A stretch of 64,000 nucleotides of DNA from an uncultured Candidatus Binatia bacterium (GTDB taxonomy: Bacteria > Desulfobacterota > Binatia > UBA9968 > JAJDTQ01), in contig OZ219754.1 of NCBI GenBank assembly GCA_964291295.2, positions 3,328,001 to 3,392,000 on the forward strand, given 5' to 3'. Below, piece after piece: positions 38,066-53,704 of the stretch (position 1 is its first letter; each line of letters opens with the position of its first letter). The notes under the pieces are model-generated. The model saw nothing but the letters and a program-made list of their open reading frames with translations. It was not told the DNA's origin and did no database searches. The position numbers and the translations under genes were made by a program.

Positions 38066-38216
38066 CCCAACCTTGCCGCCTCTGGAGTCGTGGCAGGGCA
38101 GGAATCCAGAAATCAGCATTGATATATCGTGAGCATGTCGTCGGGCGGGCCAATGTAGTGCCATAAAGTGCAAATTGGGTATCGCTGAGGGTGGCGCGCC
38201 ATGCTGCCATCCTCCC

Positions 38217-39999
38217 ATGTTCATCCGCCACACCCCTACTCGCAGTAGCAGCGAACCTTGCGTCACCCACCGCCCGGTGCGCTCCGAACGCGACGGTTCA
38301 AAGGTGCGTCAACGCAATCTGCTCAATCTCGGGCGGCACTTCGACGTGGCTCCACAGGAGTGGCCCGTGCTGTGCCGGCGCATTCAGGAGATGCTTGCCG
38401 GCCAACTTCCCCTGTCTCCGGGCTGCCCCCCGACACTCGAAAACCACGCCCAGCGCATCACCGCCCAACTCCTCGACCGTGAGCGCGTCGGCACCGCGAC
38501 CGCGTCCACAAGCCAAGAGGGCAATCTCCAAAGCGTCGATGTCGACCCCCTGGAGTTGGTTCGACCACGCTCGGTGGGCGTCGAGCACGTGGGCCATGGA
38601 CCAACTCGGCCTGCGCACCCTGCTCGACCAACTCGGCCTCGGCGCGTCGATGCACGCAGCCGCCATCGGCTCGATCATCGCGCGTATGGCGCAGAGCGCG
38701 CCACCCGGCGCTGGCTTGGCGACCGCAGCACCCTGGGTGAACTGCTCGGGGTGGAGTTCGCCACCATGGGACCGATGCGGCTGTATCGCGCCTCCGATGC
38801 CCTGATGGCCCACCGCGACGTCATCGAAAAGCATCTGTTCGACCGGGCCATGGACCTGTTCGAGATCGAACCCACCGTCACGCTCCATGATCTGACCACT
38901 CTATTCTTCGAGGGCAAGGCGCCCCTCCAACCGAAGGCCCTGCGCGGCCACTCCAAGGACAAGCGCACCGATTGCCCGCTGCTCACCCTGGGGCTCGTGC
39001 TCGACTCCGGCGGCTTCGTGCGCCGCTCCCAGGTCTTCGCCGGCAACGTCCGCGAGCACCACACCCTGGCCCGGATGCTGGATGCGCTCAACGCCCCGCG
39101 CTCCGCCCTGGTGGTGATGGACCGGGGCTTCACCACCGAAGAGCGCCTGCAGTGGCTGCACCAGCAGAGATACCCCTGCCTGGTGGTCAGCCGTGAACGC
39201 AACCGGCACTTCAACCCCCAAGCGGCACAGCGCCTCAAGACCGCTTCCAGGCATGGCGTGCAATTGCACAAGGCCTTGTCCCAGGAGGCCAGGAGGTGCG
39301 CCTGTACTGCTTCTCCAAACAACGTGCCGCCAAGGAACGCGGCATCGTCGAGCGCTTCGCCCGGCGCTTCGAGAACGCCCTCAACAAGCTCTCCGAAGGT
39401 CTCTCCCGACCCCGCATCCAAAAACGTGTGGAGCAGGTCTGGCAACGTATCGGGCGGCTCAGGGAGAGCACTCGTGGCATCGCCCAGCACTACGACATCG
39501 CACGCGACACCGATGAGTCCGGACAACGCGCCACCGCCGTGCGCTTCACCCGCCGCCCTCTCCCCGGCTCGATGATGACCCATCCGGGCGTCTACTGCCT
39601 GTGCAGCAGCGAAACCCACTGGAAGGAAGAAACCCTGTGGCGTACCTGGTTCAGGCTCACCGACATCGAAGCCGTCTTCCGCTCCCTCAAATCTGAACTC
39701 GGCCTGCGCCCCGTCTACCACCACAAGCCGCTCCGCGCCGAAGGACATCTGGTTCATTACCGTGCTCGCCTGCCAACTCGTCCAGGTCATCCGTACTCGC
39801 CTGCGTCAATCGGACGAGCACGCCAGCTGGACCACACTACGCCGCGTCCTCCATGGACAACACCGCGTCACCACCACGTGCTGATGGGCGCACCCTGCAC
39901 GTGCGCAAGGCGACCCGCGCCGAACCAACCCAGCAGGCCATCTACAAAGCCCTGCGCATCAATCCCGCTCCCGGAGGAACTCGCAAAACCGTCGTGTAA
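38217..39999 (+). mobile_element. IS1634-family transposase pseudogene (several frameshifts)
   Basis: MFIR...KVRQRNLLNLG, RSVGVEHV, LYRASDAL, HDLTTLFFEG, GHSKDKRTDCPL, VMDRG, IEAVFRSLKSELGLRPVYH, spread across shifted frames. Confidence 0.88.
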
Positions 40000-40085
40000 C
40001 CAACCTTCAAACCTGTCCCCTTCCATATTCTGTCATGTGCTGCAGAGCTTGCATCTGAAACCGATACTACGACTAACCCGCAGGT

Positions 40086-40580
40086 TCACAAGCCGGAATA
40101 GGCGCGAAGCCTGGCGCGAACTTCTGTCCGGGGGAGCCGGCACCGAGGATGCGCGGCAATTCGCCGGAGCCCCTCGATCAAGGCGTCCTGGCCGAGGATT
40201 CGATGGCCTTGCAAGTGATCGAGCAGCCACAGGACACCGTGGCATTCGACATCTTCTTCGAGTGCCGCGGCGCGTAGCCGGGCGTCTCCGGAGAGCAGCG
40301 TCCATGAATATGTCTTGGCCAGGGAAAGCGCGAAGCTGTCGGGAAGCGAGAGGCTGCGGCGTATGCGACGGTACGCAAGGGCGAGGGCGACTGCGTTTCC
40401 GTCCAATTCTTCAACGCGGAGCCCCAAGTTGATGAGCATGGGGCCGCCGTGATCCTTGAGTTCGCGTTCATAGAGCAGGTCCGGCACGGCGAACTCGACC
40501 GGAAGACGAAAGACAGCTTCCAGGAACGAGCCGCGTTCAAGGTCGATGAGCACCGAGGTGTCGGAGACGAGCACCGGCAT
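40086..40580 (-). CDS. PIN-domain (DUF3368-like) putative RNase toxin
   Basis: VLVSDTSVLIDL, LSLPDSFAL, LLSGDARLR, HGVLWL; starts 5 bp after the XRE-ImmA stop. Confidence 0.8.
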   Translation of the reverse strand: MPVLVSDTSVLIDLERGSFLEAVFRLPVEFAVPDLLYERELKDHGGPMLINLGLRVEELDGNAVALALAYRRIRRSLSLPDSFALSLAKTYSWTLLSGDARLRAAALEEDVECHGVLWLLDHLQGHRILGQDALIEGLRRIAAHPRCRLPRTEVRARLRAYSGL

Positions 40581-40585
40581 GAAGG

Positions 40586-41674
40586 TCAAACACTGACGGG
40601 AGCGGCTTTCATGGTCGGTGGTTCGTCCATGAGCCGGACGAGCTCGTGGACCGAGTGTCCGAGCAGTTCGGCGGCCTTGGACTCCGAGATGGCACCTTCC
40701 GCCAAGGCGCGGAAGCATAGACGACCGAAACGCCTGGGCTCTTCGCCGTCCATCGCCCACGGCTCCCTGTAGGGTGGACTGCGCCAGCCGCGACGCTTGA
40801 ATTCGTTGAACAGGCGCTGGAACAGAGGGCTACCGAAGATCCCCAGATCCTTGCAGCGATAGGTGAGGGCCTGCACGCTGACCCCGAAAATCCGCTTGAG
40901 GTCGAACAGCTCGCTCCAGCCAATGGACTGGCGATGCCTGCCTACCTCGGCACGCAGCGTTTCGGCTGGCATGAGGAAGGCACCCGCAAATCGGTGAGCG
41001 GCCCTCTCGTCATCAATTTTCGGCGCGACGTTCAAAACCATGTGCCCGAGTTCGTGGGCGACGGTGAATCGCTGGCGCTCTCCCCAGTCCCGTCGATTGA
41101 CGACGATCACCGACGCGATGCTCCGGTCTTCACGGCGCACGCCGGCCGTGAGACCGTCCATGTTGGAAAGAGGCATCGAAAGAACCTTGATGCCGCGTTC
41201 CTCCAGAAGCTCGACCAGATTCGGTATTGGATCGAGTCCGAGTCCCCAGTGACCACGGAGGCCGTGCGCGGCCTGTTCCGCCTCCACCAAGTCGTGGAGC
41301 AAAGGCCAAGGGGCGTCGCGCGGCATGTCCCAAGCGACAGTATGCAGACCGAGAATTCCCTCCACCGTGAGATAGCGCTCCAGCAGATCGAGCACCTTGG
41401 CCTCGACCTGAGCTTCTTCGCGCTTGCTCGTCAGCCGCTTCCGTCGGAAGTCGACGTCTTCCAGGGCGATGACGCTGTCGCTGGCCAAGTAATCCACGGA
41501 TACGCCGAGAGCGCTCGCGAGCGCAATGAGGACACCCGAGCTCGGCATCGACTCATCGCGCTCGTACTTGCTGATCGCCTGCGCCGTGACGCGGTTGTCG
41601 ATTCTGGATTCAAGATCGCGGAGCGATAGACCTTCCGCACGCCGTGCTATCCTGATGCGTTGCCCTATTGACAT
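40586..41674 (-). CDS. XRE-family HTH fused to an ImmA/IrrE (Peptidase M78) metallopeptidase
   Basis: IGQRIRIARR..GLSLRDL...AISKYE; RQRFTVAHELGH; ERAAHRFAGAFLMP. Confidence 0.92.
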   Translation of the reverse strand: MSIGQRIRIARRAEGLSLRDLESRIDNRVTAQAISKYERDESMPSSGVLIALASALGVSVDYLASDSVIALEDVDFRRKRLTSKREEAQVEAKVLDLLERYLTVEGILGLHTVAWDMPRDAPWPLLHDLVEAEQAAHGLRGHWGLGLDPIPNLVELLEERGIKVLSMPLSNMDGLTAGVRREDRSIASVIVVNRRDWGERQRFTVAHELGHMVLNVAPKIDDERAAHRFAGAFLMPAETLRAEVGRHRQSIGWSELFDLKRIFGVSVQALTYRCKDLGIFGSPLFQRLFNEFKRRGWRSPPYREPWAMDGEEPRRFGRLCFRALAEGAISESKAAELLGHSVHELVRLMDEPPTMKAAPVSV

Positions 41675-41728
41675 TTTCTCCCACCTCGCATGGTTGACAT
41701 TCTCTCATCTATCGACAATACTTGTCAA
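41668..41728. promoter_or_regulatory. Divergent promoter/operator region
   Basis: Direct repeat TTGACATTyTCTC at 41668 and 41694; inverted TTGACA (41694)...TGTCAA (41723). Confidence 0.55.
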
Positions 41729-41920
41729 GCACAGAGGCTTGAAACGCCTCAGGGAAGGTCCGAACAAGGCGACGGAGCAACAGTGGCCTGCTTACAACCC
41801 ATTGGTTTTTCCTGATTCAGCCCCATCGAACTCGGGGGTGTCCAGACCTTCCTTAAGGGCGACTCGTGTCGTGGAACGCACCTGTTCTCGAATCTGTTCC
41901 GGTTATCGGAGGTTGAGACC

Positions 41921-43096
41921 ATGACTGCATCCCTTTCGTTTTTTCCCGTTGGTAATGGCGACATGACGCTTGTCGAAACCGAGGAGGGCTTCAGGATATT
42001 GATCGACATGAACATCCGGGCCGCCGCGGACGACCCGGACGACGACACACCGGACGTGGCGAAGGAGCTCCGGGACAGGCTGACCCGGGATTCGCAGGAT
42101 CGGCTCCATGTGGATGCGTTGCTCGTCAGCCACCCTGATGAGGACCACTGCCGGGGGCTGTGCAAGCACTTTCACCTGGGTCCGCCGGACGAATGGTCAA
42201 AGCGTACCGACAAGATACTGATCCGGGAGGTCTGGTCGTCGCCAATGGTCTTCCGGCGTGCCTCGCGACAGGACCCGCTGTGCGACGATGCGAAGGCGTT
42301 CAACAGCGAGGCGCGGCGCAGGGTGCGCAAGCACCGTGCGTCGCGGCGGCCGGCCGGCGATGGCGACAGGATCCTCATTCTCGGCGAGGATGAAGGCGGC
42401 AAGACAGACGATCTGCAGGACATTCTGGTACGTGTGGACGACGAATTCTCACACATCAATGGTCGATATGATGGATCGATGCATGCCCGGCTGCTCGCGC
42501 CGCTGCCGGCGGCGGATGTCGATGACGAGGAGGTTCTATCAAAGAACAACTCGAGCACGATCTTGCGATTCTCGTTGAAGGGTGGCGGGATCAGGGATAA
42601 GTGCCGGTTCCTGACAGGGGGCGACGCGGAGGTCGCGATATGGGAGGAACTGTGGGGCCGTCACGGCCGGCAGGCCGACCGGTTGTCCTACTACGACATC
42701 CTGCTGTGCCCGCATCATTGCTCCTGGCACAGTCTGTCGCACTACAGTTGGGGCGAGTTGCGCAACAAGGGCGCAGTCTCGGAGGAGGCCCGGAATGCCC
42801 TGTCGCAGGCAAGGGATGGCGCAACGATCGTGGCGAGCAGCAATCCGATTGAGGACGATGACAACGATCCGCCCTGCATAGGCGCCAAGCAGACATACCA
42901 CGCCATCGCAAAGGGCGCAGCCGGCTCCTTCGAATGCGTCGGAGAGCGACCGTCGAAGAAGTCGCCCGGTGTGATGAAATTCGAGATCGGCGCGCACGGC
43001 GCACGCTTGAGGACCGCGCTCATGGCGGCGCCCGCAGTCTTCGGGGCCGGAGCCGTCGGGCGGCAGGCACTGGCGCACGGCAACGGTACGTCATGA
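41921..43096 (+). CDS. Metallo-beta-lactamase-fold hydrolase (ComEC/Rec2-like) with a Gly/Ala-rich C-terminal tail
   Basis: FFPVGNGD, LIDMN, SHPDEDH, NNSS, LTGGDAE, PHHCS; GGAGG RBS; ends GAGAVGRQALAHGNGTS. Confidence 0.85.
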   Translation: MTASLSFFPVGNGDMTLVETEEGFRILIDMNIRAAADDPDDDTPDVAKELRDRLTRDSQDRLHVDALLVSHPDEDHCRGLCKHFHLGPPDEWSKRTDKILIREVWSSPMVFRRASRQDPLCDDAKAFNSEARRRVRKHRASRRPAGDGDRILILGEDEGGKTDDLQDILVRVDDEFSHINGRYDGSMHARLLAPLPAADVDDEEVLSKNNSSTILRFSLKGGGIRDKCRFLTGGDAEVAIWEELWGRHGRQADRLSYYDILLCPHHCSWHSLSHYSWGELRNKGAVSEEARNALSQARDGATIVASSNPIEDDDNDPPCIGAKQTYHAIAKGAAGSFECVGERPSKKSPGVMKFEIGAHGARLRTALMAAPAVFGAGAVGRQALAHGNGTS

Positions 43097-45474
43097 CCCG
43101 CTCTCGGCCCAATGACGCGATCCGGCGTGCCCTTGCTCTGATCTCCGAACATCCCAACGTCCATGGAATGGATGCACCGCTGTATGACGCGACGAGGGGC
43201 GCGGCCACTGTCGACGTGACCTTCAGGGTCAACCTGCCGAGCGAGTGGCGGCGGCAGGGAGAGAGCCCCTCGGGCGTCAGGAGTCGGGAGGTCGTGCGGT
43301 TCGACTTTTCCGCCGTGTATCCCTTGTATCCACCAGCCTTGTCGCTTCGCGAGGACTTCACCAGAAATCTGCCGCACATGCAGCCGTGGATGACGGACGG
43401 ACGGCCCGTACCGTGCATTTGCGACGGCGATACGGCCGAACTGCTCCACCGGGACGGACTGGTGGGCATCCTCAACCAGATCTCCCTGTGGCTGGAAAAT
43501 GCCGCACTCGGCAAGCTTATCGACCCGGAGCAGGGGTGGGAGCCGGTCCGCCGCGACTCGTTGCACGATGTCGTTATTGCCGACGCAGGGCATTTACGGG
43601 GCTTGGTCAACCGGCAGGGCGACTGGTGATTCCTGAAGGTCAGCTACCTGAAGAGCGCCGCGCTGGATGGAAGCCATCTCTTTCATGGCCAAGTCTTGAA
43701 CGAAGTGATCAGAGTAAATCCAAAGTCGATCGGACAGCACTTTTGTGAGGCAGAACTGAATGGTCATGCCGGACTGAGCTGGGGCATTTCGCTGGCACTG
43801 GTTGCCTGGCCGGGGAAGCGACCGTCGGGCGAGGTCATTGTCAGCGACAGCTATTTCCCGGAGACGGTCGAGACCATCGACGGCATGAAGAAACGCGCGG
43901 CGATGTACGGTTGCGGCCGAGAGCTGGACGACGGGCTGCGCTGGCTCAGAAGGCGTCTGTCGGGCTGCGCGAAAGCGGGGCCGTTTCCGATGCCGGTAAT
44001 CATCCTGGTTCGCCGGCCGTTCCACCTGATCGGAAGCACGAGCCCGATTGAACTCTGCCCGTACATGGTCGAAGTCCATTTGCCCGGTCTGTTCAGTGAC
44101 GGAGGGGCCACGGCCGTACGCGCGGCGGCGCACCGCCACACAATATCCCGGCCGCTTCTCGCCGGAATGGCCGGATGGCCGTCAACGACCGATCAACCGC
44201 GCTGGACGCTCGTGGGCGCAGGCAGCCTCGGCTCGAAGATCGCCCTTCATCTCACCCGCGCGGGCAATGGCCCTGATGTGGTGGTCGATCGGTCGGTGAT
44301 GAGCCCGCACAACGCGGCCCGGCATGCGCTCGTTCCGGTAGCAGGGGACATGCAGATACTCTGGATGGATAGCAAGGCACGGAGTCTATCCCGTGCCTTG
44401 CGCGGCCTGGACCAGGACGCGACGGCGCTGTTGGCGGACGCGGTCACGATGGCGATGGACCGGCAGGACACACAAGGGGCATGGTCGGAAAAGTCCTGGG
44501 CCGTGGTGAATGCCACGGCGTCGCTTGCCGTCCGGGAAGCGATCGGCGCGAGCAAGTGCATCCGTTCGCGGGTGGTCGAGGCATCACTGTTTGCCGGAGG
44601 AGCTCTGGGGGTCATCACAGTCGAGGGACCAAGACGCAATCCGGGCACAACAGATCTGATGGCGGAATTCTACGCAGTGCTGCAGGAGGAGCCGGAGCTC
44701 TCATCCATCGTCTTCGACAACGGACAGGCACTGGCGAGACAGGACACCGGTCACGGATGCGGCTCGCTGACGCTGGCCATGTCGGATGGCCGGTTGTCTT
44801 TGTTTGCTGCGGGGATAGCCGAGTACCTGCTCTGCAGGCAGAAGGATGGACTCCCCGATGAGTGCGGAGAGGTCGTGATCGGGCGGATGTCGGACAACGG
44901 TTTGGGTGTGGCATGGCGGGCAAAGCGAATCCCACCTGTCACCGTTGTGGAAACGAAGAACGGCTCACCCTGGCACATTCATTTGCACCATCGGGCACTG
45001 TCCAAGATGCAGGCGGAGGCCGGACGCTGGCCGAATGCGGAGACTGGGGGCGTGCTCATGGGCCGGCTCTCGGAGGTTTCGCAAGTTGCCCATATCGTGG
45101 ATGTGTTGGACGCTCCAGAGGACAGCGAGCGCTCGTCCGACGAATTCATCCTCGGCAAGCAAGGCCTTGGACGAAGCCTGGAGGACTACTCAACGTCCGT
45201 CGGCTGGTCGCTCTACTGCTTGGGAACGTGGCACAGCCATCTGTCTCCGGGCGGTCCATCGCTCACGGATCGGGCGACGGCAAGAGCAGTGTCGCTGGCG
45301 CGCCTGGCACCCTCCATATTCGTGATCAGGACGCCAACGGGGTTCGAAGCGTTGACGGCGGATGGGGATGATTCCATGGTTCCGGGTGCGGATATGCTCG
45401 CAGGCGGTGAACGAGGACGTGGGAGCCGGGCCTCGCCCGTGCCGTCCGCGACGCCTGTCACTGGTGGGAGGTAG
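43093..45474 (+). CDS. Prokaryotic E2 - E1(ThiF) - JAB fusion (Cap2/Cap3-like), interrupted by an in-frame TGA at 43627-43629
   Basis: E2: YPLYPP, NLPHMQP...PVPCI, WLENAA. E1: GAGSLGSKIA, VVDRSVMSPHNAARH, VVNATAS, GHGCGS. JAB: ETGGVLMG, GTWHSH...PSLTD. Both ORF-track pieces are in the same frame with no other stop between them. Confidence 0.85.
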
Positions 45475-45479
45475 ACCTC

Positions 45480-46022
45480 ATGGACGCGTTGCTGGACAAA
45501 CTCTCCTCCTACAACATCTTCAACTACCTTCTTCCAGGCAGCCTGTTTGCAGTGATTGCGGATGCCGTGACCGGGGCCGAGTACCGCCTTGTCCAGGAAG
45601 ACATCGTAGTCGGGCTCTTTCTCTACTACTTCATCGGTTTGGTGGTCAGTCGAACAGGATCCCTGATCGTCGAGCCCATTCTGAAGGCAGTCGGATTCGT
45701 TAGGTTCGTCGAATACAGCAAATTTGTCGAAGCCTCAAGGGCCGATCCGAAGATCAACGTGCTTTCCGAAACGAACAACATGTACCGTACTCTATTCGCG
45801 CTCTTTCTTCTTCTGATACTTGTCGCTTTGTTTGACCAATTTGCCTCCTTCCTTCCTTGGCTCGTGGGCGGGTTGTCGTATATCGTCTGGACTGCTCTCC
45901 TGATAATGTTCGTGTTCGCTTATCGAAAACAGACCGACTACATCGTCAGGCGAGTCAATGAAGCCATCCATGAGGAAAAGGCCGGACCCGACGTAGGGGA
46001 TGGGAGTCAGAAGCTGTCCTGA
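45480..46022 (+). CDS. Small membrane protein with about 4 TM helices; putative accessory/effector of the E2-E1-JAB operon
   Basis: Four hydrophobic segments; GGAGG RBS within the end of the upstream gene; visibly lower GC than its neighbours. Confidence 0.75.
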   Translation: MDALLDKLSSYNIFNYLLPGSLFAVIADAVTGAEYRLVQEDIVVGLFLYYFIGLVVSRTGSLIVEPILKAVGFVRFVEYSKFVEASRADPKINVLSETNNMYRTLFALFLLLILVALFDQFASFLPWLVGGLSYIVWTALLIMFVFAYRKQTDYIVRRVNEAIHEEKAGPDVGDGSQKLS

Positions 46023-46050
46023 TCGAGAGTAACCGGGGGGAGGGACCGTT

Positions 46051-46329
46051 CAGGACTGTCCCACGCTGCATGTTTGTGCGGGCGGTGAGGTTTGGGTCAG
46101 GCACTGGCGTTCTTGCGCTGGGGTAGTCATAGTATGGGAATATTGGAACGGATCTGCGATGGGTCGAGCGCGATCCACTGTGAGGCTCCGGAAGGGTACT
46201 CGCTGTTGGAGGTGGAGGTTTGTCTGATGACAGCCGGGGGAGCGTCTGGACTGGGACGTGCTGATGGACACGCATCCTCATCCGGGCTTTCGCCGTCTGG
46301 CAGGCTGCGACCTTCAGAGGCCGTTGGCC
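46051..46329 (+). mobile_element. Truncated left end of the same ISAs1-like family as the element at 14029
   Basis: Shares caggactgtcccacgctgc, caggcactggcgttcttgcgctg, gggacgtgctgatggaca and ccttcagagg with about 14029-14353. Confidence 0.85.
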
Positions 46330-46501
46330 AGGAGTCTGCGCCGCACAAAATTTTCGTGGGACAGATATCCACCAGAATCCCGCTTGGCGCCCAATTCATG
46401 TCCAATAATGGGACAAGGCTACACGTTTCTGGCATTTTGGACGAAAATCCGGTCATGCTCTCCCACCGGTTGCATCCCGAAGCGTCCTGCGGCACAGGCT
46501 C

Positions 46502-47527
46502 CTAGCAGGTCACGCCGTACAGCCGCTTGGCCGAATCGGCCAGCAGCCACTTCTTCTCCTCGGGAGACAGATCTTCCCGGCGGCCGAGCTGGTCGATGTT
46601 CTCGGGGAACTCCATGTCCCAGTGCGGAAAGTCGGAAGCGTAGTAAAGCACGTCCGGGCTCAGGAACCTGGCGGTCTCGCCGACAAAGGGCTCGTAGTCC
46701 TCGGCGTGAAAGTAGATGTTGCCGCCGCGCACGTACTCGCTGGGTCGCTTCTTGCAGAGCGGCGCTTCCGCCTGGCCGCGCTTCTCCCATTCCTCGTCCA
46801 TGCGCCCGGCCCAGTAGGGTGCCCACGAGCAGCCGGCCTCCATGAACGCCACCCGAAGATCGGGGAAGCGGTCCATCACGCCGCGAAAGATCATGCTGGT
46901 CATCTGCATCATCTGGGCGAAGGCGTGGGACAGGGTGTGCACCTCGATGAACCGGTCGAATCCGTCGGCGCCGAAATACTGCGGCCCGCGCACGGTGGCG
47001 TGCACGCCCACCATGCAGTCGAGCCTCTCTGCCTCCTCGTAGATGGGCCAGTAGTCCTGGTGTCCCAACGGCAGCCGCAGCCCCACGGCCGGCAGCATGA
47101 GTCCGGTGAGGTGCAACTCCCGGACCGCCCGGCGCAACTCCTTGACCGCCTCGGGCACGTCCTGAAAGGACACCAGCGCCACCCCCTTGAGCCTGGGGCT
47201 GACCTTCTGGAACTCTTCGGAGACAAAGTCGTTCCAGGCCTTGCAGAGGGCCACCGCAAGGTCCGGCTCGCGGATCCAGCCGATGCCCAGGCCGCCCGTC
47301 GGATAGAGGTAGGCGGTGGTGAGCCCGCCGTCGTCCATGGCGTCAAGCCAGGTTCTGGCGTCACACGCCGTCGTCCCCAGCGTCCCGCCGATGGAGCGGT
47401 CCCAGTTGTCTATCGGGTAGAGGGTGGCGGTGCGGTCCACCCAGGGCGCCTCCATGTATTTCTTGAGCTGCGCGTCGGTCTCGGTGATGTGTCCGTCCGC
47501 ATCAATGACTTCGACGTCTCTGGCCAT
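46502..47527 (-). CDS. Amidohydrolase family protein (Amidohydro_2)
   Basis: IDADGH, LYPT, AWND, VGVH, FPDLRVAFMEAG, YASDFPHWD. Confidence 0.9.
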   Translation of the reverse strand: MARDVEVIDADGHITETDAQLKKYMEAPWVDRTATLYPIDNWDRSIGGTLGTTACDARTWLDAMDDGGLTTAYLYPTGGLGIGWIREPDLAVALCKAWNDFVSEEFQKVSPRLKGVALVSFQDVPEAVKELRRAVRELHLTGLMLPAVGLRLPLGHQDYWPIYEEAERLDCMVGVHATVRGPQYFGADGFDRFIEVHTLSHAFAQMMQMTSMIFRGVMDRFPDLRVAFMEAGCSWAPYWAGRMDEEWEKRGQAEAPLCKKRPSEYVRGGNIYFHAEDYEPFVGETARFLSPDVLYYASDFPHWDMEFPENIDQLGRREDLSPEEKKWLLADSAKRLYGVTC

Positions 47528-47817
47528 GATTCCTCCTCGACGGATTGCCGAAAACCGGCGCAAGCTGCGCCCGATGGCCCTGCCGGCCACCCTTCCGTGA
47601 ACACGCCGGGAGACTCTACGGCCACCCGCGCCGCGCTGTCAACCGTGCTGGAAAGGCCAGGGACGACAACGTGTTCGTCCCGAAGTCCCGGCCGGTGCCG
47701 GACCCGGACGGTTACGGACTGGCCGTCGCGATCCCGCGGCGCTGACCGAAGAACGCCAATTTGTTATATCGATATTCGATATCGGAGCCGTGCCGACCCG
47801 ACAGCGGGAGACCCGCA

Positions 47818-49029
47818 ATGTCCGACCGCCGCCTGCTTACGCGCATTGCGTTGCGAAACTACAAGAGCATCGGCGCCTGCGATGTGAAGCCGGCGCAGCT
47901 GTCCTTCCTCGTCGGGCCGAACGGCTCCGGCAAAAGCAACTTCCTTGATGCACTCCGATTCACCGCGGAATCCCTCGGTTACTCCATGGACCACGCGCTG
48001 CGCGACCGGGGCGGCATCGGAGATGTCCGCCGGCGCTCGGGCGGCCACCCGACCCATTTCGGCATTCGGCTCGAATTCGCACTTGAGGAATGGACCGGCT
48101 ATTACGCTTTCACGGTCGGGGCCATGAAGCGGGGCGGCTATGAGATTCAGAAGGAAGAATGCCGCGCCGCACCGCGAAACGCCCTCGGCGAGCACCGTTA
48201 CCGAGTCGAGCGGGGCCGTGTGGTCGAAAGCACCTTCGCGACTCCTCCCATTGCCGCCGCCGACCGGTTGTATCTCGTCACGGTCTCGGGTCTGGAGCCC
48301 TTCCGCGCGGTTTACGAATCTCTGGCAACCACCGGTTTCTACAACCTGAGCCCGGAGGCGATCCGGGACCTCCAGCCGCCCGACCCGGGAAAGCTTCTGG
48401 AGCGGGACGGGAAAAATCTGGCCAGCGTCCTGCACAACCTTTCCGAGAACGCTCCCCACTTCAAACAAAGAATCGAGGACTATCTCGGAAAGGTGGTTCC
48501 CGGGATTGCCGGCGTCGAGCGGCGCGCCTTGGGGCCAAAGGAAACCCTGGCATTCCGCCAGAAGGTTCGAGGGGCGCGACATCCCTGGCAGTTCCTTGCC
48601 GGGAACATGTCGGATGGCACACTGCGCGCCCTCGGCATTCTGGTGGCGCTGTTCCAGAGCCGCGCGCAGGACCATGGGAGGCGCCGGCTCGTCGGCATCG
48701 AAGAGCCGGAGATCGCGCTGCATCCCGCCGCCGCCGGCGTGCTGGTGGACAGCCTCCGGGACGCCGCCGAGCATACCCAGATCCTTGTCACCAGCCACAG
48801 CCCGGAACTGCTCGACAATTCGGACATATCGGCGGACCAGATCATCGCGGTCACGGCGGAAAGCGGCGAAAGCCGCATGGGACCGCTGGACGAGACCGGA
48901 CGGTCGGCGTTGAGAGATCGTCTTTACACAGCCGGCGAATTGCTCAGGCTGAACCAACTCGACCCGGTCCCGTCGCTCTCAAGACCGGGTGTCCGCCAAA
49001 TGGACCTGTTCGGCCCGGTGGCCGAATGA
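47818..49029 (+). CDS. ABC-type ATPase (AAA_21/AAA_15-like)
   Basis: LRNYKSI, GPNGSGKSN, MSDGT, IEEPE, VTSHS. Confidence 0.9.
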   Translation: MSDRRLLTRIALRNYKSIGACDVKPAQLSFLVGPNGSGKSNFLDALRFTAESLGYSMDHALRDRGGIGDVRRRSGGHPTHFGIRLEFALEEWTGYYAFTVGAMKRGGYEIQKEECRAAPRNALGEHRYRVERGRVVESTFATPPIAAADRLYLVTVSGLEPFRAVYESLATTGFYNLSPEAIRDLQPPDPGKLLERDGKNLASVLHNLSENAPHFKQRIEDYLGKVVPGIAGVERRALGPKETLAFRQKVRGARHPWQFLAGNMSDGTLRALGILVALFQSRAQDHGRRRLVGIEEPEIALHPAAAGVLVDSLRDAAEHTQILVTSHSPELLDNSDISADQIIAVTAESGESRMGPLDETGRSALRDRLYTAGELLRLNQLDPVPSLSRPGVRQMDLFGPVAE

Positions 49030-49628
49030 TGCGCAGGACCGTCCTGGCCATTGTGGAAGGACATGGCGAGGTGTTCGCGCTGCCGGAGTTGATCCGGCGC
49101 ATCGCCCGTGAGGTGTCGCCGGATGTTGTTGTCGAGACGCCCCGGCCCTTCCGGCTGCCGCGCAACAGGATGGTGAAAGATGGCGAATTGGAACGCGCCG
49201 TCACGCTTGCTTCGCGCAAGGCGGGGACCGGCGGATGCATTCTGATATTGCTCGACGCCGACCGCGACTGCCCGGCGGAGCTCGCCCCGCGGCTTCTTGC
49301 CCGCGCTGTGGCGGCCTGTCCGGGCCGGGACATCCGTGCGGTGGTGGCCACGACGGAATACGAAGCCTGGTTCCTGGCAGCCGCCCGCTCGCTCGCCGGG
49401 AAGAACGACCTCGACGAAACCCTTGAGCCGCCGGATAGTCCCGAAGCAATCCGGGACGCCAAGGGCTGGCTCAGCGCCAGAATGCCGCGTGGCCGGAGTT
49501 ATCGGGCAACGCTCCACCAGGCAGCGCTCACGAAAACCTTCGACATGACGGCCGCGCGTCGGCTTTCCCCTTCCTTCGATAAATTGTGGCGGGACATCGG
49601 AAGCCTTCTCCGGCCGCCGCCAGCGTAA
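49026..49628 (+). CDS. DUF4276-like TOPRIM-fold protein
   Basis: IVEGHGE, LLDAD.DCP, EYEAWFLA, SPSFDKL; ATGA overlap with the ATPase. Confidence 0.8.
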   Translation: MMRRTVLAIVEGHGEVFALPELIRRIAREVSPDVVVETPRPFRLPRNRMVKDGELERAVTLASRKAGTGGCILILLDADRDCPAELAPRLLARAVAACPGRDIRAVVATTEYEAWFLAAARSLAGKNDLDETLEPPDSPEAIRDAKGWLSARMPRGRSYRATLHQAALTKTFDMTAARRLSPSFDKLWRDIGSLLRPPPA

Positions 49629-49629
49629 G

Positions 49630-49800
49630 CCCGCAGTTTCGGCACAGATGGCAGGCGACCGTGTGGGGCTTCGCGACGTGGCGAAGCCCCGTGGATTCGA
49701 CCCGGGAGCGTTCCTCCGCATGGGGGACGGCGTGTGCGGAAGTGGCAGCCGGACCGGCGGTTGATCGGACTTGGCACATCGCCATGGAGCAGCGTCTTTT
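49630..49800 (-). pseudogene. Fragment of an oligopeptide ABC ATPase C-terminus
   Basis: LHGDVPSPINRRSGCHFRTR and HTVACHL in shifted frames. Confidence 0.7.
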
Positions 49801-49837
49801 TCCAGCGCAATCGCAGGTAGGGTACCGCCTCGGCCAA

Positions 49838-49896
49838 GCGCCCGTCACTCGCCGCGCCACCGCGGCGTCCGCTTCTCCACGAAGGCTCGTGCGCCC
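49838..49896 (-). repeat. 59 bp diverged copy of the enoyl-CoA hydratase 3' end (partner at 53914-53972)
   Basis: Manual alignment gives 53/59 identity; encodes GARAFVEKRTPRWRGE* versus GAQAFVEKRAPQWRGE*. Confidence 0.9.
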
Positions 49897-49971
49897 ACGA
49901 CGGGTTTTGTCAGCCTGGTGATAAGCGTGAAGTGGTGGCGACGCTGACCATTTCATTTTCGATATGGCAGT

Positions 49972-50334
49972 ATGTCGGTCATGGCGAAGCTGCCGGCGCT
50001 CGATTCGTCCATTGATCTGCACGCGGTCAAGGTGCTTCCAACCTTGGGTTCGCACGAGCACCGGGACCGAATGTTCGAGGCGCATCACGGTACGCAGCGG
50101 GGTTACGCTGTGAACGAGGATCTGGCGCTGATGCCCGGGCTCCTTTTCCACACCGCGGCGCCGATGCACAGCCGCGAGAACATGCGCGCCGTGGCGGAAG
50201 GGGTCGGGGCAATGGACTGCGAAAAGGCAGCGTACTGGCTGGACATGGCGACGCACCGCAGGTATCCGCGCCGGGCACTGGCGTCGTTGCGATGCCGGCT
50301 GCCGGTGCCCGAGACGAGGGAGTGGCGATCATGA
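49972..50334 (+). CDS. Small, probably 5'-truncated protein resembling the accessory gene of DUF499/DUF1156 defence operons
   Basis: VNEDLAL..GLLF...AEGVGAM..E.AAYWL.MA.HRRYPRRALASLR (family recalled, not searched); stop overlaps the start of the next ATPase. Confidence 0.5.
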   Translation: MSVMAKLPALDSSIDLHAVKVLPTLGSHEHRDRMFEAHHGTQRGYAVNEDLALMPGLLFHTAAPMHSRENMRAVAEGVGAMDCEKAAYWLDMATHRRYPRRALASLRCRLPVPETREWRS

Positions 50335-51611
50335 AGCTGGAGCGTGTGGAGATCGAGAACTATCGTGCCATTGAGAGGCTCGATCTGCCGCTGAACCCCG
50401 GTTTGACCGTGTTTCACGGGGACAATGCGCATGGCAAGACCAGCGTCCTGAGCGCGATTGCGACCGGTCTCGGGAGCATTCCCATGCTCCTGCCCGGTGT
50501 GTCGGGGGTTGGTTTTCGCAGGACCGACGGTCACGACCCCTGGCGGGAGGTGAGGGTCGGACTGACGGCCCTCGACGGTGTGGCATGGGACCGGCGCATG
50601 CGCGGACCGCGGCGAACGACAGTCAGGCGGGATTTGAAGGACGCCATGGATGCCATCGCAAGTGCGGACCGGGAGGGAGCGGAACCTGTTGTCCTGCCCA
50701 TCGTGGCCTTTTACGACACCGACCGGGCGGTGTTCGATCAACCGCAACGTCGGAGAGGGTTCAAGGCCGAGTTTCCACGCTACGCGGCGTTGCAAGGCGC
50801 GCTATCCGCTCGCACCGATTTTCGGGACTTCTTCAAGTGGTTCTATGCCAAGGAGAACGAGGAACTCCGGGAGCAAAAGGAACGCCGGGACTTCAACCAT
50901 CGGCTCAACGATTTGAAGGCCGTGCGCAGGGCCATCGAAACCATGGTCCCCGGTGTATCCGGCCCCCGCATCGAACTCCGTCCCCTCCGGTTTGTCGTCT
51001 CCGTCGAGCCGAACGAGGGCAAACCGGAAAAGCTCTCGCTCGACCAGTTGAGCGGGGGTTACCGGATCATGCTCGCACTGGCGGCCGACCTCGCGCGGCG
51101 GATGGCCCAGGGGAATCCCCATCTCCACGATCCTCTCCAGTCGGAGGCGGTCGTGCTGATCGACGAGGTCGAACTGCACTTGCACCCTTCGTGGCAGCAA
51201 CGGATTCTCGCCGATCTCGCGAAGACCTTCCCCAATACCCAGTTCATCGTTTCCACCCACAGCCCGCAGGTTCTGACCACCGTCAAGCCGCAAAATATCG
51301 TGGAGCTTCGGCGGGAGCAGGGCAGAATCGTGGCCGTGCCGGCGTCTACCTCGGCCCCGACCTACGGCGCGGAGGCCGGTGATGTGCTGGCGACCGTGAT
51401 GGGAGTGGACGAACGGCCGGGCGGCAACGAGTTCTCGAAGAAGCTGGCGCGTTATACGGAACTTGTTGCGGATGGCAAGGGCGATTCCCCGAGCGCCGTC
51501 AGCTTGCGGCGAATACTGAACGAGTTGTCGCCGCGCGATCCCGCACTCGACCGAGCCGACATCGAGATCAGGCGGCGCAATCTGCTCAAGCGCATGGACC
51601 GATCCCGGTGA
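50331..51611 (+). CDS. Septu PtuA-like ABC ATPase
   Basis: IENYRAI, GDNAHGKTS, QLSGG, ADLARR, VLIDEVELHLHPSWQQ, FPNTQFIVSTHSPQ. Confidence 0.85.
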   Translation: MKLERVEIENYRAIERLDLPLNPGLTVFHGDNAHGKTSVLSAIATGLGSIPMLLPGVSGVGFRRTDGHDPWREVRVGLTALDGVAWDRRMRGPRRTTVRRDLKDAMDAIASADREGAEPVVLPIVAFYDTDRAVFDQPQRRRGFKAEFPRYAALQGALSARTDFRDFFKWFYAKENEELREQKERRDFNHRLNDLKAVRRAIETMVPGVSGPRIELRPLRFVVSVEPNEGKPEKLSLDQLSGGYRIMLALAADLARRMAQGNPHLHDPLQSEAVVLIDEVELHLHPSWQQRILADLAKTFPNTQFIVSTHSPQVLTTVKPQNIVELRREQGRIVAVPASTSAPTYGAEAGDVLATVMGVDERPGGNEFSKKLARYTELVADGKGDSPSAVSLRRILNELSPRDPALDRADIEIRRRNLLKRMDRSR

Positions 51612-52357
51612 AACACATCCGGGCGCTGGATGGGCCAACCCCCGGTCTGGCCGACTATCTGGCCTGCGATGGTGGGCACGCGAGTTGGGAGGGATTCCAC
51701 AGTCACCGGGCGGGTGCGGCCTACCGTGAAATCATTGAGACGCTCTGTTCCATCCAGCACGGGCTGTGCGGATACTGCGAGATCGACATCACCGAACGCG
51801 ACAAGCAGGTCGAGCACGTCATACCACGGAGCAATCCGCTTCAAGGCGTGGCTCGTGCCCTCGACCCGACCAACATGATCGCCTGCTGCAAGGGCGGCAC
51901 TCGTGAGACTGACGATCCGATGCGATGGCTGGAACCCGCCCGGCGCAATCGCAGTTGCGGAGAAGCCAAGGGCAATCGGACAGACGCGGATTTCGTCGAT
52001 CCAAGGACTTTGACCGACTTGCCGTCACTGACACGGGTGAGCTTCGACGGCCGAATCAGAGCCGATGCCGAGTCGTGTGACCGTTGCGGGATTCCTGTTG
52101 CCAGGATGGAGAAAACGATCGAGATACTCGGACTGAACATTGAGCGGTTGCGGCGAGCACGAGAAAAACACTGGAACGCGCTGACCGACAACTGGGAGTT
52201 GAAGACGGACGATCCCTTGATGATCGAAGCGGCTGCAAGAGCAGAGCTTCTTCCGGGCAAGAACAGTCGCCTGCCGCGATTCTTCACCACAAGCCGAAGC
52301 TACTTTGGCGTGTACGCCGAGAGGGTTCTTTCGGAACCTCCACGGGACTGGATATGA
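51608..52357 (+). CDS. Septu PtuB-like HNH endonuclease
   Basis: QHGLCGYCE, VEHVIPRS, NMIACC, SCGEAKGN, TIEILGLN; GTGA overlap with the ATPase. Confidence 0.85.
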   Translation: MKHIRALDGPTPGLADYLACDGGHASWEGFHSHRAGAAYREIIETLCSIQHGLCGYCEIDITERDKQVEHVIPRSNPLQGVARALDPTNMIACCKGGTRETDDPMRWLEPARRNRSCGEAKGNRTDADFVDPRTLTDLPSLTRVSFDGRIRADAESCDRCGIPVARMEKTIEILGLNIERLRRAREKHWNALTDNWELKTDDPLMIEAAARAELLPGKNSRLPRFFTTSRSYFGVYAERVLSEPPRDWI

Positions 52358-52361
52358 GCCG

Positions 52362-52400
52362 ATGTCCGACACCCGTCTGATCGAGCGTTGGCTGCCGATC
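52362..52400 (+). pseudogene. N-terminal stub resembling a DUF1156 adenine-methyltransferase
   Basis: MSDTRLIERWLPI starts 4 bp after the HNH stop and resembles the recalled DUF1156 N-terminus. Only 13 codons long. Confidence 0.45.
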
Positions 52401-52590
52401 GGGACCGCCCGCGACGAGGCAGAAACCCACATGCTCGGACCCGGCGGCATGCTCGGCAGCAAGACCCCGGCTCCCGTGTACCAGGAACTCCACGGCTTGA
52501 TGCCGGCCCATTACGCCGTGCGCCGCCTCATCCAAGAGGCCGCACGAAGATCCGGATCGGCTATCCTTCCTTCACGCCGTGAACGTCGCC
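52401..52590 (+). mobile_element. IS4-family transposase C-terminal fragment
   Basis: DEAETHM...LGSKTPAPVYQELHGLMPAHYAVRRLIQEAA. Confidence 0.65.
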
Positions 52591-53643
52591 CGTCGCCTTC
52601 GGTCCGTACTCCACGACCGCTTGCGCCACGGCCCCGCACCATCCCGCGAGCGCATCCACTTGATCATCGGTGAACGCCCGGTCGATCGGGCATTTCAATT
52701 CGCTGCCCGCAGGCATGAACAGCCTCGTCGCGTCCGCGGCGGTCCGAAGTCGGTTGATAGCCTCGGGGGGAGCACTTGTCTTCCCTGCGATGCCGTAACC
52801 GTCAGCCAAGGCCGTGTAGAGCGTCTGCTTGTTCCCTGAAGAGGGTGGGTAGCAGTAGCAGACGACCACGCGCGCTCCGTTGACCTCGACACCGACCGTG
52901 AAACTCGTGTCTCGTATTCTGACGGACATCGACCGGCTGCGTGCCAGTTCGAGAATTCTGGAGAAGACACGTTTCCCGTGCTCGTCGCATTTCTTCAGGA
53001 AGTCGCCTTCCGAAACCACGGGCGGTGGTTTGGACGCCACGTGGCGCGGCTTTACGTCTCCTACCCCGACGACGGTCTCCTGAGACAGCAGACGACCGCC
53101 CTCGGCAGCCTTGAAGAAGGCGAACTCGACGCACGTCACGCGGACGCCCTTGGATCCAAGGAACGAGGCCGTCTGCCTGATCGCCGGCGTCACCTGCTGT
53201 CCGACAACCACGATGCGTTGGTCCTGGTTGAACGCGACGGCTTCCGATGGATCGACGCTGAAACAGTCCCGGTGGCAGTCGGCAAGACTGAGTGATTCGT
53301 CCTGCTCGTGGCGGCGGAGGATGCACTCCAGCGTGTCCACATCCAGCCGCGCGGCGAACGCGGCGTATTCGAGTGCCTGGGCGAGGACATCCCGCGGCGT
53401 GCGGTCTCGCTTCAGTTCCACCACGACCACATTCCCCTCGCGGTCTACGCCGAGGAGGTCGATGAGCCCGCCGAGGTCGGTTCGCACCTGGCGCCCGAGG
53501 ATCAGAATCCGGCCGTCCTCGAGAATCTTGTCGGGATTGGACACCAGCCACTGTTCAAGGACGGATTCCTGATGATCGACCTCGAACGGCAACTGTTCGT
53601 ATTCCGTGAAATCGCCGTCGGAACCAACGCGGAAGAGTCTCAT
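52561..53643 (-). CDS. NucS/DUF91-like PD-(D/E)xK endonuclease domain protein
   Basis: ESVLEQWL...IDLLGVDREGNVVVVELKR...VLAQALEYA. Confidence 0.8.
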   Translation of the reverse strand: MRLFRVGSDGDFTEYEQLPFEVDHQESVLEQWLVSNPDKILEDGRILILGRQVRTDLGGLIDLLGVDREGNVVVVELKRDRTPRDVLAQALEYAAFAARLDVDTLECILRRHEQDESLSLADCHRDCFSVDPSEAVAFNQDQRIVVVGQQVTPAIRQTASFLGSKGVRVTCVEFAFFKAAEGGRLLSQETVVGVGDVKPRHVASKPPPVVSEGDFLKKCDEHGKRVFSRILELARSRSMSVRIRDTSFTVGVEVNGARVVVCYCYPPSSGNKQTLYTALADGYGIAGKTSAPPEAINRLRTAADATRLFMPAGSELKCPIDRAFTDDQVDALAGWCGAVAQAVVEYGPKATGDVHGVKEG

Positions 53644-53704
53644 GGTTGCCCATGCCATCGGGCGTCGCCGGGCCTGCATCCAGGGTGAACGTGCTTCCCG
53701 CACG

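Follow-up and report, generated by a model that had tools for sequence, protein, structure and literature searches.

A 6A-MBL operon with a coupled third gene for a membrane protein in an uncultured Binatia bacterium

What might a ubiquitin-like conjugation operon do when it holds neither a ubiquitin nor a cyclase gene, and does the membrane protein encoded by its last gene belong to the system? These questions are raised by three forward-strand genes in a stretch of 64,000 nucleotides from an uncultured Candidatus Binatia bacterium (GenBank assembly GCA_964291295.2, contig OZ219754.1, positions 3,328,001 to 3,392,000), referred to here as the window. The first gene (41921-43096) encodes a ComEC/Pce-like hydrolase of the metallo-beta-lactamase (MBL) fold with 391 residues; the second, cap2_3 (43093-45474), is an E2-linker-E1-JAB fusion of 793 codons with an in-frame TGA at codon 179; the third (45480-46022) encodes a membrane protein of 180 residues belonging to the PADLOC family PDC-M48A (hereafter M48A). 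An earlier note, made from the letters of the DNA, had described a tightly coupled operon, and this description held: an ATGA overlap (43093-43096) joins the first two genes and a gap of 5 bp (ACCTC) precedes the membrane-protein open reading frame (ORF). Its statement that no CD-NTase or ubiquitin-like gene lies nearby agrees with our scan of 11-13 neighbouring ORFs, which gave no match to CD-NTase or beta-grasp families, small ORFs not being all covered. The operon is more than a chance arrangement, since its DNA is 71-82% identical to that of four other genomes over a span of about 3.6-4 kb, with ratios of nonsynonymous to synonymous substitution (dN/dS) of 0.10-0.26 against these genomes, where computable. 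The window contains a copy of the known 6A-MBL system, in a real three-gene variant.

The identity of the first two genes as 6A-MBL was confirmed by NCBIfam, where the hydrolase scored 417.4 bits against NF058524 (cut-off 220) and cap2_3, with codon 179 read as X, 561.6 bits against NF058523 (cut-off 320). The fusion carries the Pfam domains Prok-E2_A (2e-31), ThiF (2.4e-7) and Prok-JAB (2.5e-7), matches the PADLOC models for E1-E2 (1.1e-14) and JAB (3.1e-14) in a single chain, and has the domain order E2, E1, JAB of row 6a of Iyer 2006; the three folds proposed from motifs were thus upheld by profile searches in Pfam, NCBIfam and PADLOC. The motifs themselves are real: E2 H95 and C108, E1 G375, G377, G380, R410, K428 and C556, and JAB E650 are each present in 69 of 69 aligned cap2_3 sequences, JAB H714, H716, S723 and D726 in 68 of the 69, and the window protein agrees with every column conserved in at least 85% of them. 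A phmmer search of cap2_3 against the PDB gave 0 hits at E<=0.01. In the hydrolase, H71, D73, D75, H76, D235, H265 and H266 are each conserved in 97-102 of 102 aligned sequences, and the window copy is again identical to all columns at least 85% conserved. Its model (pLDDT 91) found its best fold matches in the MBL domain of ComEC (9ic4, 1.5e-12) and the phosphodiesterase Pce (2bib), and the M48B models of PADLOC scored it at 3e-4 at best. An identity as a drug-resistance beta-lactamase was rejected, as the nearest folds of the modelled protein are ComEC and Pce. No match to the MBL was obtained in the phage collection searched. Like 6A-MBL, the locus has an MBL gene followed by a single-chain E2-E1-JAB, and no ubiquitin or cyclase gene; unlike the system as catalogued, it has a coupled third membrane gene, a four-residue tail past the Gly of the hydrolase, and a nonsense codon in cap2_3.

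The third gene product matches PDC-M48A (PDLC04670, 1.2e-61). The earlier note had called it a protein with four transmembrane segments (4-TM), a reasonable label on the predicted structure: hydropathy gives three segments over threshold, and the AlphaFold model (pLDDT 87) consists of four long helices (12-30, 42-70, 91-124 and 126-167). Neither Foldseek nor VIA-align found a PDB match for this fold (best Z 5.0), and the ESM Atlas returned only unnamed clusters. As in the PADLOC candidate system PDC-M48, composed of an M48A membrane protein and an M48B MBL, the third gene is M48A; unlike PDC-M48, the window has no M48B, its only MBL being the 6A enzyme, and the membrane gene is followed by repeats resembling miniature inverted-repeat transposable elements (MITE-like) and an unrelated gene. 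The counts for M48A that follow refer to the best 80 of 107 genome loci. In 79 of these 80 an MBL gene lies within 3.5 kb of M48A. The recurrence of the membrane gene beside the two-gene core, on which the earlier note had let its extended variant depend, was found in 12 of the 80, with M48A directly behind a 6A core. The M48A family proper is nevertheless rare beside 6A-MBL. Of the families described below for this position, the 3.7-Mb genome from which the window was taken has M48A alone, in two copies. Its second M48A (G000:C1:2409292-2411445; L161:8292-10445) is 70% identical and lies directly past the stop of an unrelated hydrolase gene, away from any core; behind it are an internally repeated membrane ORF of 167 residues, also present behind M48A in locus L001, and then a convergent M48B-type MBL gene.

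How regularly the third position is occupied was determined within 2 kb of complete cores, that is, of an MBL gene plus cap2_3. A metagenome set of 80 loci contained 55 with both core genes, 31 with 1.5 kb of flank on each side, and 23 after deduplication; a genome set, obtained by searching four sets, each of about 400 genomes (about 1,600 together), for the families, gave 23 regions, 19 cores and 18 cores with flank. Left out of the genome set were L187 and L188, orphan cap2_3 genes that score above the family cut-off, adjoin an RND-type efflux locus and showed neither an MBL nor a partner; L206, split by a transposase, in which a patatin is fused; L207, whose MBL scored nearer to M48B and which has a family A gene (see below) downstream; and L191, with a short flank and a patatin. 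The position was filled in 18/18 cores of the genome set (nine by members of the 4-TM superfamily, one by a 4-TM protein plus a patatin, seven by a patatin and one by another membrane protein) and in 23/23 of the metagenome set (21 by the 4-TM superfamily and two by another membrane family). The patatins were confirmed by Pfam. The three deduplicated relatives of the genus all have a patatin in this position, and a membrane partner was present in 7/7 plasmid loci, hand-picked from 40 listed of 258. A third slot, with a 4-TM protein, another membrane protein or a patatin, is near-universal in 6A cores. In five loci (L203:5485-6021, L111, L101, L151 and L209, the last of a type from a commensal E. 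coli plasmid) it is held by a second, unrelated membrane family of about 170 residues with the motif GGxxYCxRxxY, for which the members scanned gave no Pfam, PADLOC or NCBIfam match.

In some cases the ligase carries the partner as a C-terminal fusion: E2-E1-JAB plus a 4-TM domain of family C in P0253, and E2-E1-JAB-patatin in L182 and L200. Moreover, partners are exchanged between sister cores, the clade of the window, with M48A, being sister to L123 (family A) and L131 (family B), and Bacteroidota M48A cores being sister to patatin cores; these and all other trees were built with FastTree, with no approximately unbiased test. Such swapping of unrelated partners fits a link through a small molecule or the state of the membrane better than a fixed protein interface. 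From these observations the third gene is probably the output arm of the system. A separate arrangement was noticed in L182 (3247-5834), L183 and L208, with consecutive ThiF, JAB and M48B-type MBL genes; this row is followed by a family A membrane gene in L208 and lies directly upstream of a 6A-patatin fusion system in L182 and L183.

A reader might suppose instead that the membrane gene is a hitch-hiker, one half of a former PDC-M48 pair clustered into a defence island, and that the two-gene 6A-MBL is self-sufficient. M48A itself lay behind the core in 0/80 MBL-anchored metagenome loci, and a search of 60 related genomes, four of which carry the 6A enzyme over the cut-off, did not find it; the second M48A of the genome lies off any core, and in three Poribacteria loci a whole PDC-M48 stands behind the core. 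Against this, related or analogous proteins fill the slot at all cores of both sets, and the ligase fusions exist. Furthermore, of the 12 M48A loci behind a 6A core, nine are without an MBL of their own, and these nine together with the window fall into two clades whether the ligase or the membrane protein is used for the tree, with starred branches leaving one origin possible; in them M48A is retained under purifying selection, as judged from dN/dS. We therefore regard a mere hitch-hiker as most unlikely, and keep the third gene as the probable output arm.

The 4-TM proteins of the slot are diverse. MBL-anchored metagenome loci carry other four-helix proteins that form families A-D, with clear homology among A, C and D (98%). 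A profile comparison of M48A with family C gave 62%, with a score of 37.9, the highest of 30 block shuffles being 29.3, while family C with B gave 61%; in addition, a deep family C profile matches M48A members down to 2.8e-5. Direct comparisons of M48A with families A and B were negative (probability 0.6% and 2.3%), and because the link passes through family C, we consider it only probable that M48A and families A-D make up one superfamily.

The same profiles point to Csx27, the accessory protein of type VI-B1 CRISPR. Among 84 M48A members, 52 match the PADLOC Csx27 model PDLC01605 at E<=0.5 (best 7.8e-5) and eight match NF040557, the best of these (0.0014) being equal to that of an unrelated channel model; members of families C and D and the fused 4-TM domain also match the PADLOC model weakly. 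The window protein itself matches neither of the two models. Compared with Csx27, a family of four-helix membrane proteins, it has four long helices in its model but three segments by hydropathy, and its family gives weak profile matches; unlike the context of Csx27, its locus has no Cas13b. M48A is probably a remote relative of Csx27. No Csx27 gene was obtained in the 261 genomes searched, in which the controls were equally without match. As judged from its title and from texts that cite it, Makarova et al. 2019 (PMC6700684) ties Csx27-family proteins to competence and ubiquitin-signalling genes, and an association of Csx27-like proteins with these operons is thus probably already in print. 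Consequently, what the earlier note had taken for a possibly undescribed extended variant is so in part: the three-gene arrangement is real, and the membrane gene is catalogued as PDC-M48A, and is probably related to Csx27, a family reportedly tied to competence and ubiquitin genes in 2019. The literature searched, together with the preprint on the PADLOC candidates, held no text joining 6A-MBL, PDC-M48, Csx27 and patatin, and the literature searched held none on PDC-M48; key primary papers lay outside this search and may describe the third gene.

If the third gene is the output, what would the conjugation machinery act upon? The hydrolase ends in a disordered tail (residues 371-390 mostly with pLDDT <50), ...LAHG(387)-NGTS, in which G387 is shared by 87 of the 102 aligned relatives. 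Among 74 MBLs listed, those adjoining cap2_3 terminate in Gly or in Gly plus 1-6 residues, and HG plus a four-residue tail is common to all five MBLs of the clade of the window, the extra residues arising from the ATGA overlap. This conserved terminal Gly within a disordered tail supports the suggestion of the earlier note that the MBL enzyme takes the place of the conjugated cyclase, and the MBL is likely, from its sequence, to be the conjugated unit. In view of the four residues past HG, the JAB domain would have to mature the protein, a role that is plausible because, in the available text of 10.1101/2022.03.31.486616, Cap2 conjugates a disordered conserved C-terminus and Cap3 cleaves exactly after the last residue of the cyclase. 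As in type II CBASS (cyclic-oligonucleotide-based antiphage signalling system), E2-E1 and JAB chemistry is predicted on a disordered, Gly-ending tail and the swappable slot has membrane or patatin genes; unlike type II CBASS, there is no CD-NTase match among the neighbouring ORFs scanned, the JAB is fused to the ligase, and the patatins are far from CapV. A grouping of "CBASS/Pycsar/MBL" pathways as conjugating their own enzymes appears in the available part of a preprint (PMC11601596).

Different tails were seen in eight loci (L092, L097, L112, L118, L119, L122, L128 and L129), in which a 6A-type MBL ends in ...GGN(T/S)RYA or EGNGRYA, without the terminal Gly. In L092 and L097 the gene after this MBL encodes an E2 family B-ThiF protein, in which JAB was not matched. 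WYL and 4-TM genes run divergently in several of the eight loci, which may represent a separate subtype that conjugates through a terminal Ala. Another row, in L062 (5204-7513), has a 6A-like MBL, a stand-alone E2 like that of short type II CBASS, and M48A, with no E1 or JAB seen.

For the intact relatives we propose a three-part anti-phage system with the layout of type II CBASS and an MBL hydrolase at the cyclase position. JAB would first remove the four residues past Gly387 of the MBL, and may later cleave conjugates. Gly387 would then be adenylated by E1 and, if the chemistry follows that of Cap2, the MBL would pass via Cys556 and the E2 Cys108 to a target, becoming primed or localised. 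In the weakest step, the ComEC/Pce-like MBL would upon infection cleave a phosphodiester, most likely in nucleic acid, and the product would turn on the third gene. The latter, which is a Csx27-like four-helix protein in the window and a patatin phospholipase in other loci, would finally harm the membrane and abort the infection. We hold this sequence of trimming, conjugation or priming, cleavage, and activation of a membrane-damaging protein tentatively, at a little short of an even chance.

Several points weigh against it. The core reportedly protected as a two-gene clone, and the nearest structures of the MBL are hydrolases, not signal synthases. The slot patatins scored 31 bits (cut-off 200) against CapV, which is activated by cyclic GMP-AMP (cGAMP), and the slot membrane proteins had no sensor domain in Pfam or PADLOC. 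A second MBL, of the M48B type, stands beside 9/23 metagenome and 7/18 genome cores, where the membrane protein may serve that enzyme. The slot counts themselves are partly circular, the 4-TM profiles having been derived from the metagenome set and those for patatins and other membrane proteins partly from the genome set. Finally, 6A-MBL is catalogued with two NCBIfam models (NF058523/NF058524), and operon type 6a usually has two genes in the available text of Iyer, Burroughs and Aravind 2006 (PMC1779556).

The ComEC-like fold of the MBL allows a second view of the membrane protein, as a channel or anchor for nucleic acid, or, like a patatin, as an opener of a phage-made membrane compartment; the conjugated MBL would then degrade incoming DNA with no signal relay or suicide. 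This is in keeping with the ComEC nuclease domain as the nearest relative of the enzyme, and with the prediction of Csx27-family proteins as single-stranded DNA channels in competence-like operons, as given in the available portions of citing texts (PMC7642515, PMC11662929 and 10.1101/2021.11.02.466367). Also, 6A-MBL is listed among the jumbo-phage defences in the accessible part of 10.1101/2025.09.30.679545, where Juk and Dionysus, of the same list, attack the early phage infection (EPI) vesicle, and a 4-TM domain or patatin fused to the ligase would place conjugation at the membrane. However, a phospholipase is no substitute for a DNA channel, yet both are exchanged on sister cores, and the neighbour scans showed no pilus or other uptake genes; we consider such access to DNA somewhat unlikely.

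Conservation within M48A suggests a third possibility, namely that the membrane protein is a conjugation target, a sensor or a brake of the MBL, and not a killer. Lys150 is invariant in the family and Lys7 nearly so, and in some loci the membrane gene and a WYL regulator are transcribed divergently, separate from the core. Besides, Csx27 is reported in the available text of PMC11662929 to dampen, and not to execute, Cas13b immunity, which also tells against a membrane-damaging role. On the other hand, about 65 of the 80 M48A genes have an MBL but no adjacent ligase, implying that Lys150 is kept without conjugation, and a patatin is improbable as a brake. A target or brake is decidedly unlikely in our judgement, and the membrane-damaging output is the reading that we carry forward.

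Since PDC-M48 holds the pair without any ligase, the MBL and the 4-TM protein would be the basic pair and the ligase an added regulator. A broader reading, which we find doubtful, would make 6A-MBL, PDC-M48 and orphan Csx27-like operons one CBASS-like family, in which an MBL, optionally primed by ubiquitin-like conjugation, makes, by cleavage and not by synthesis, a second messenger that gates interchangeable effectors, either Csx27-like membrane proteins or patatins. Were it true, the Csx27 of CRISPR VI-B1 would gain a ligand. The link of 6A-MBL to PDC-M48 and Csx27 would unite three poorly understood modules and offer a handle on the function of Csx27. In the available text of a review (PMC13276650), van den Berg 2024 is cited as having confirmed 6A-MBL, among other systems, in Pseudomonas aeruginosa. 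Catalogues give 6A-MBL two genes and state no output. Should a third gene acting on the membrane prove to be the rule, tests of the two genes alone may have overlooked the main effector, and 6A-MBL would become a testable parallel of CBASS with a hydrolase at the cyclase position.

The copy in the window is itself probably inactive, a pseudogene allele of a 6A-MBL member, because the in-frame TGA (43627-43629, forward strand, codon 179), just past the E2 domain (residues 38-165), replaces an Arg of four close relatives. The codon is CGA in two of these four, whose cap2_3 genes are 66-79% identical and open across 791-793 residues. Of the system, this copy would produce no more than the MBL, an isolated E2 fragment and the membrane protein. 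Three public sequencing runs contain the stretch, all as contigs, with no RNA run among those listed. In the comparison with relatives, dN/dS is 0.18-0.26 between the window and the relatives and 0.17-0.24 among the relatives, a similarity from which we infer that the stop is recent or an error. Recoding of the TGA, for instance as selenocysteine, was rejected as unlikely, given the Arg in relatives and the use of TGA as a working stop in both flanking genes. The copy might still be active if the TGA were an error of the consensus, or if the cell tolerated an E2 separate from linker-E1-JAB. The codon is the sole lesion found, the dN/dS is unremarkable, and the stop sits directly past the E2 domain with an in-frame TTG next at 43696. 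Nonetheless, a start at 43696 lacks a clear ribosome-binding site and would remove 22 residues of the linker; CGA to TGA is a common transition, the ligase is fused in all four close relatives, and the leader also carries a MITE-like insertion. An active copy thus appears unlikely. The probably dead copy is of little weight in itself, and the intact relatives are better test material.

Upstream of the operon, overlapping divergent sigma70-like promoters (41694-41728) have -35 boxes that form TTGACA-N23-TGTCAA, a candidate operator; two sites were found against 0.2 in shuffles, and TTGA.A and TGTCAA are invariant in 7/7 aligned loci. Between the promoter and the MBL start lies a MITE-like repeat of 112 bp (41747-41858) with terminal inverted repeats of 20 nt, missing from six aligned relatives and with 24 further matches in the genome. 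Divergently (reverse strand) run a regulator with a helix-turn-helix (HTH) domain and an IrrE/ImmA peptidase (40586-41674; Pfam HTH_3 and Peptidase_M78) and, behind it, a PIN-domain gene (40086-40580; Pfam PIN, 9e-6). The regulator is 77-89% identical beside the core in L001, L003, L004, L082 and L131, and the PIN gene is present in L001, L003, L082 and L131. The earlier note had counted this regulator-toxin pair among the possible defining parts of the variant, a claim that failed: WYL regulators instead adjoin 8/23 metagenome cores, and another HTH-IrrE/PIN pair of the genome has no 6A core match in its vicinity. The pair is an accessory restricted to the wider clade of the window. The 2019 study by Makarova reportedly names WYL and multidomain ubiquitin proteins as well.

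The surroundings are those of a defence island, with a HEC-01A/B pair, Septu PtuA/PtuB and a NucS-like PDC-S11 match downstream (47761-53703, PADLOC). Two adjoining MITE-like repeat families follow the membrane gene (46050-46506), with 36 further genome matches together. Upstream of the operon (38117-40012) there is a frameshifted DDE transposase (Pfam), of which the genome has three more near-full copies (about 91%) along with several that are partial. Elsewhere in the genome (G000:C1:3197199-3197395; L162:7200-7396), short remnants of another 6A-MBL locus were identified, in which pieces of the 3' part of an MBL gene and of an E2 are joined.

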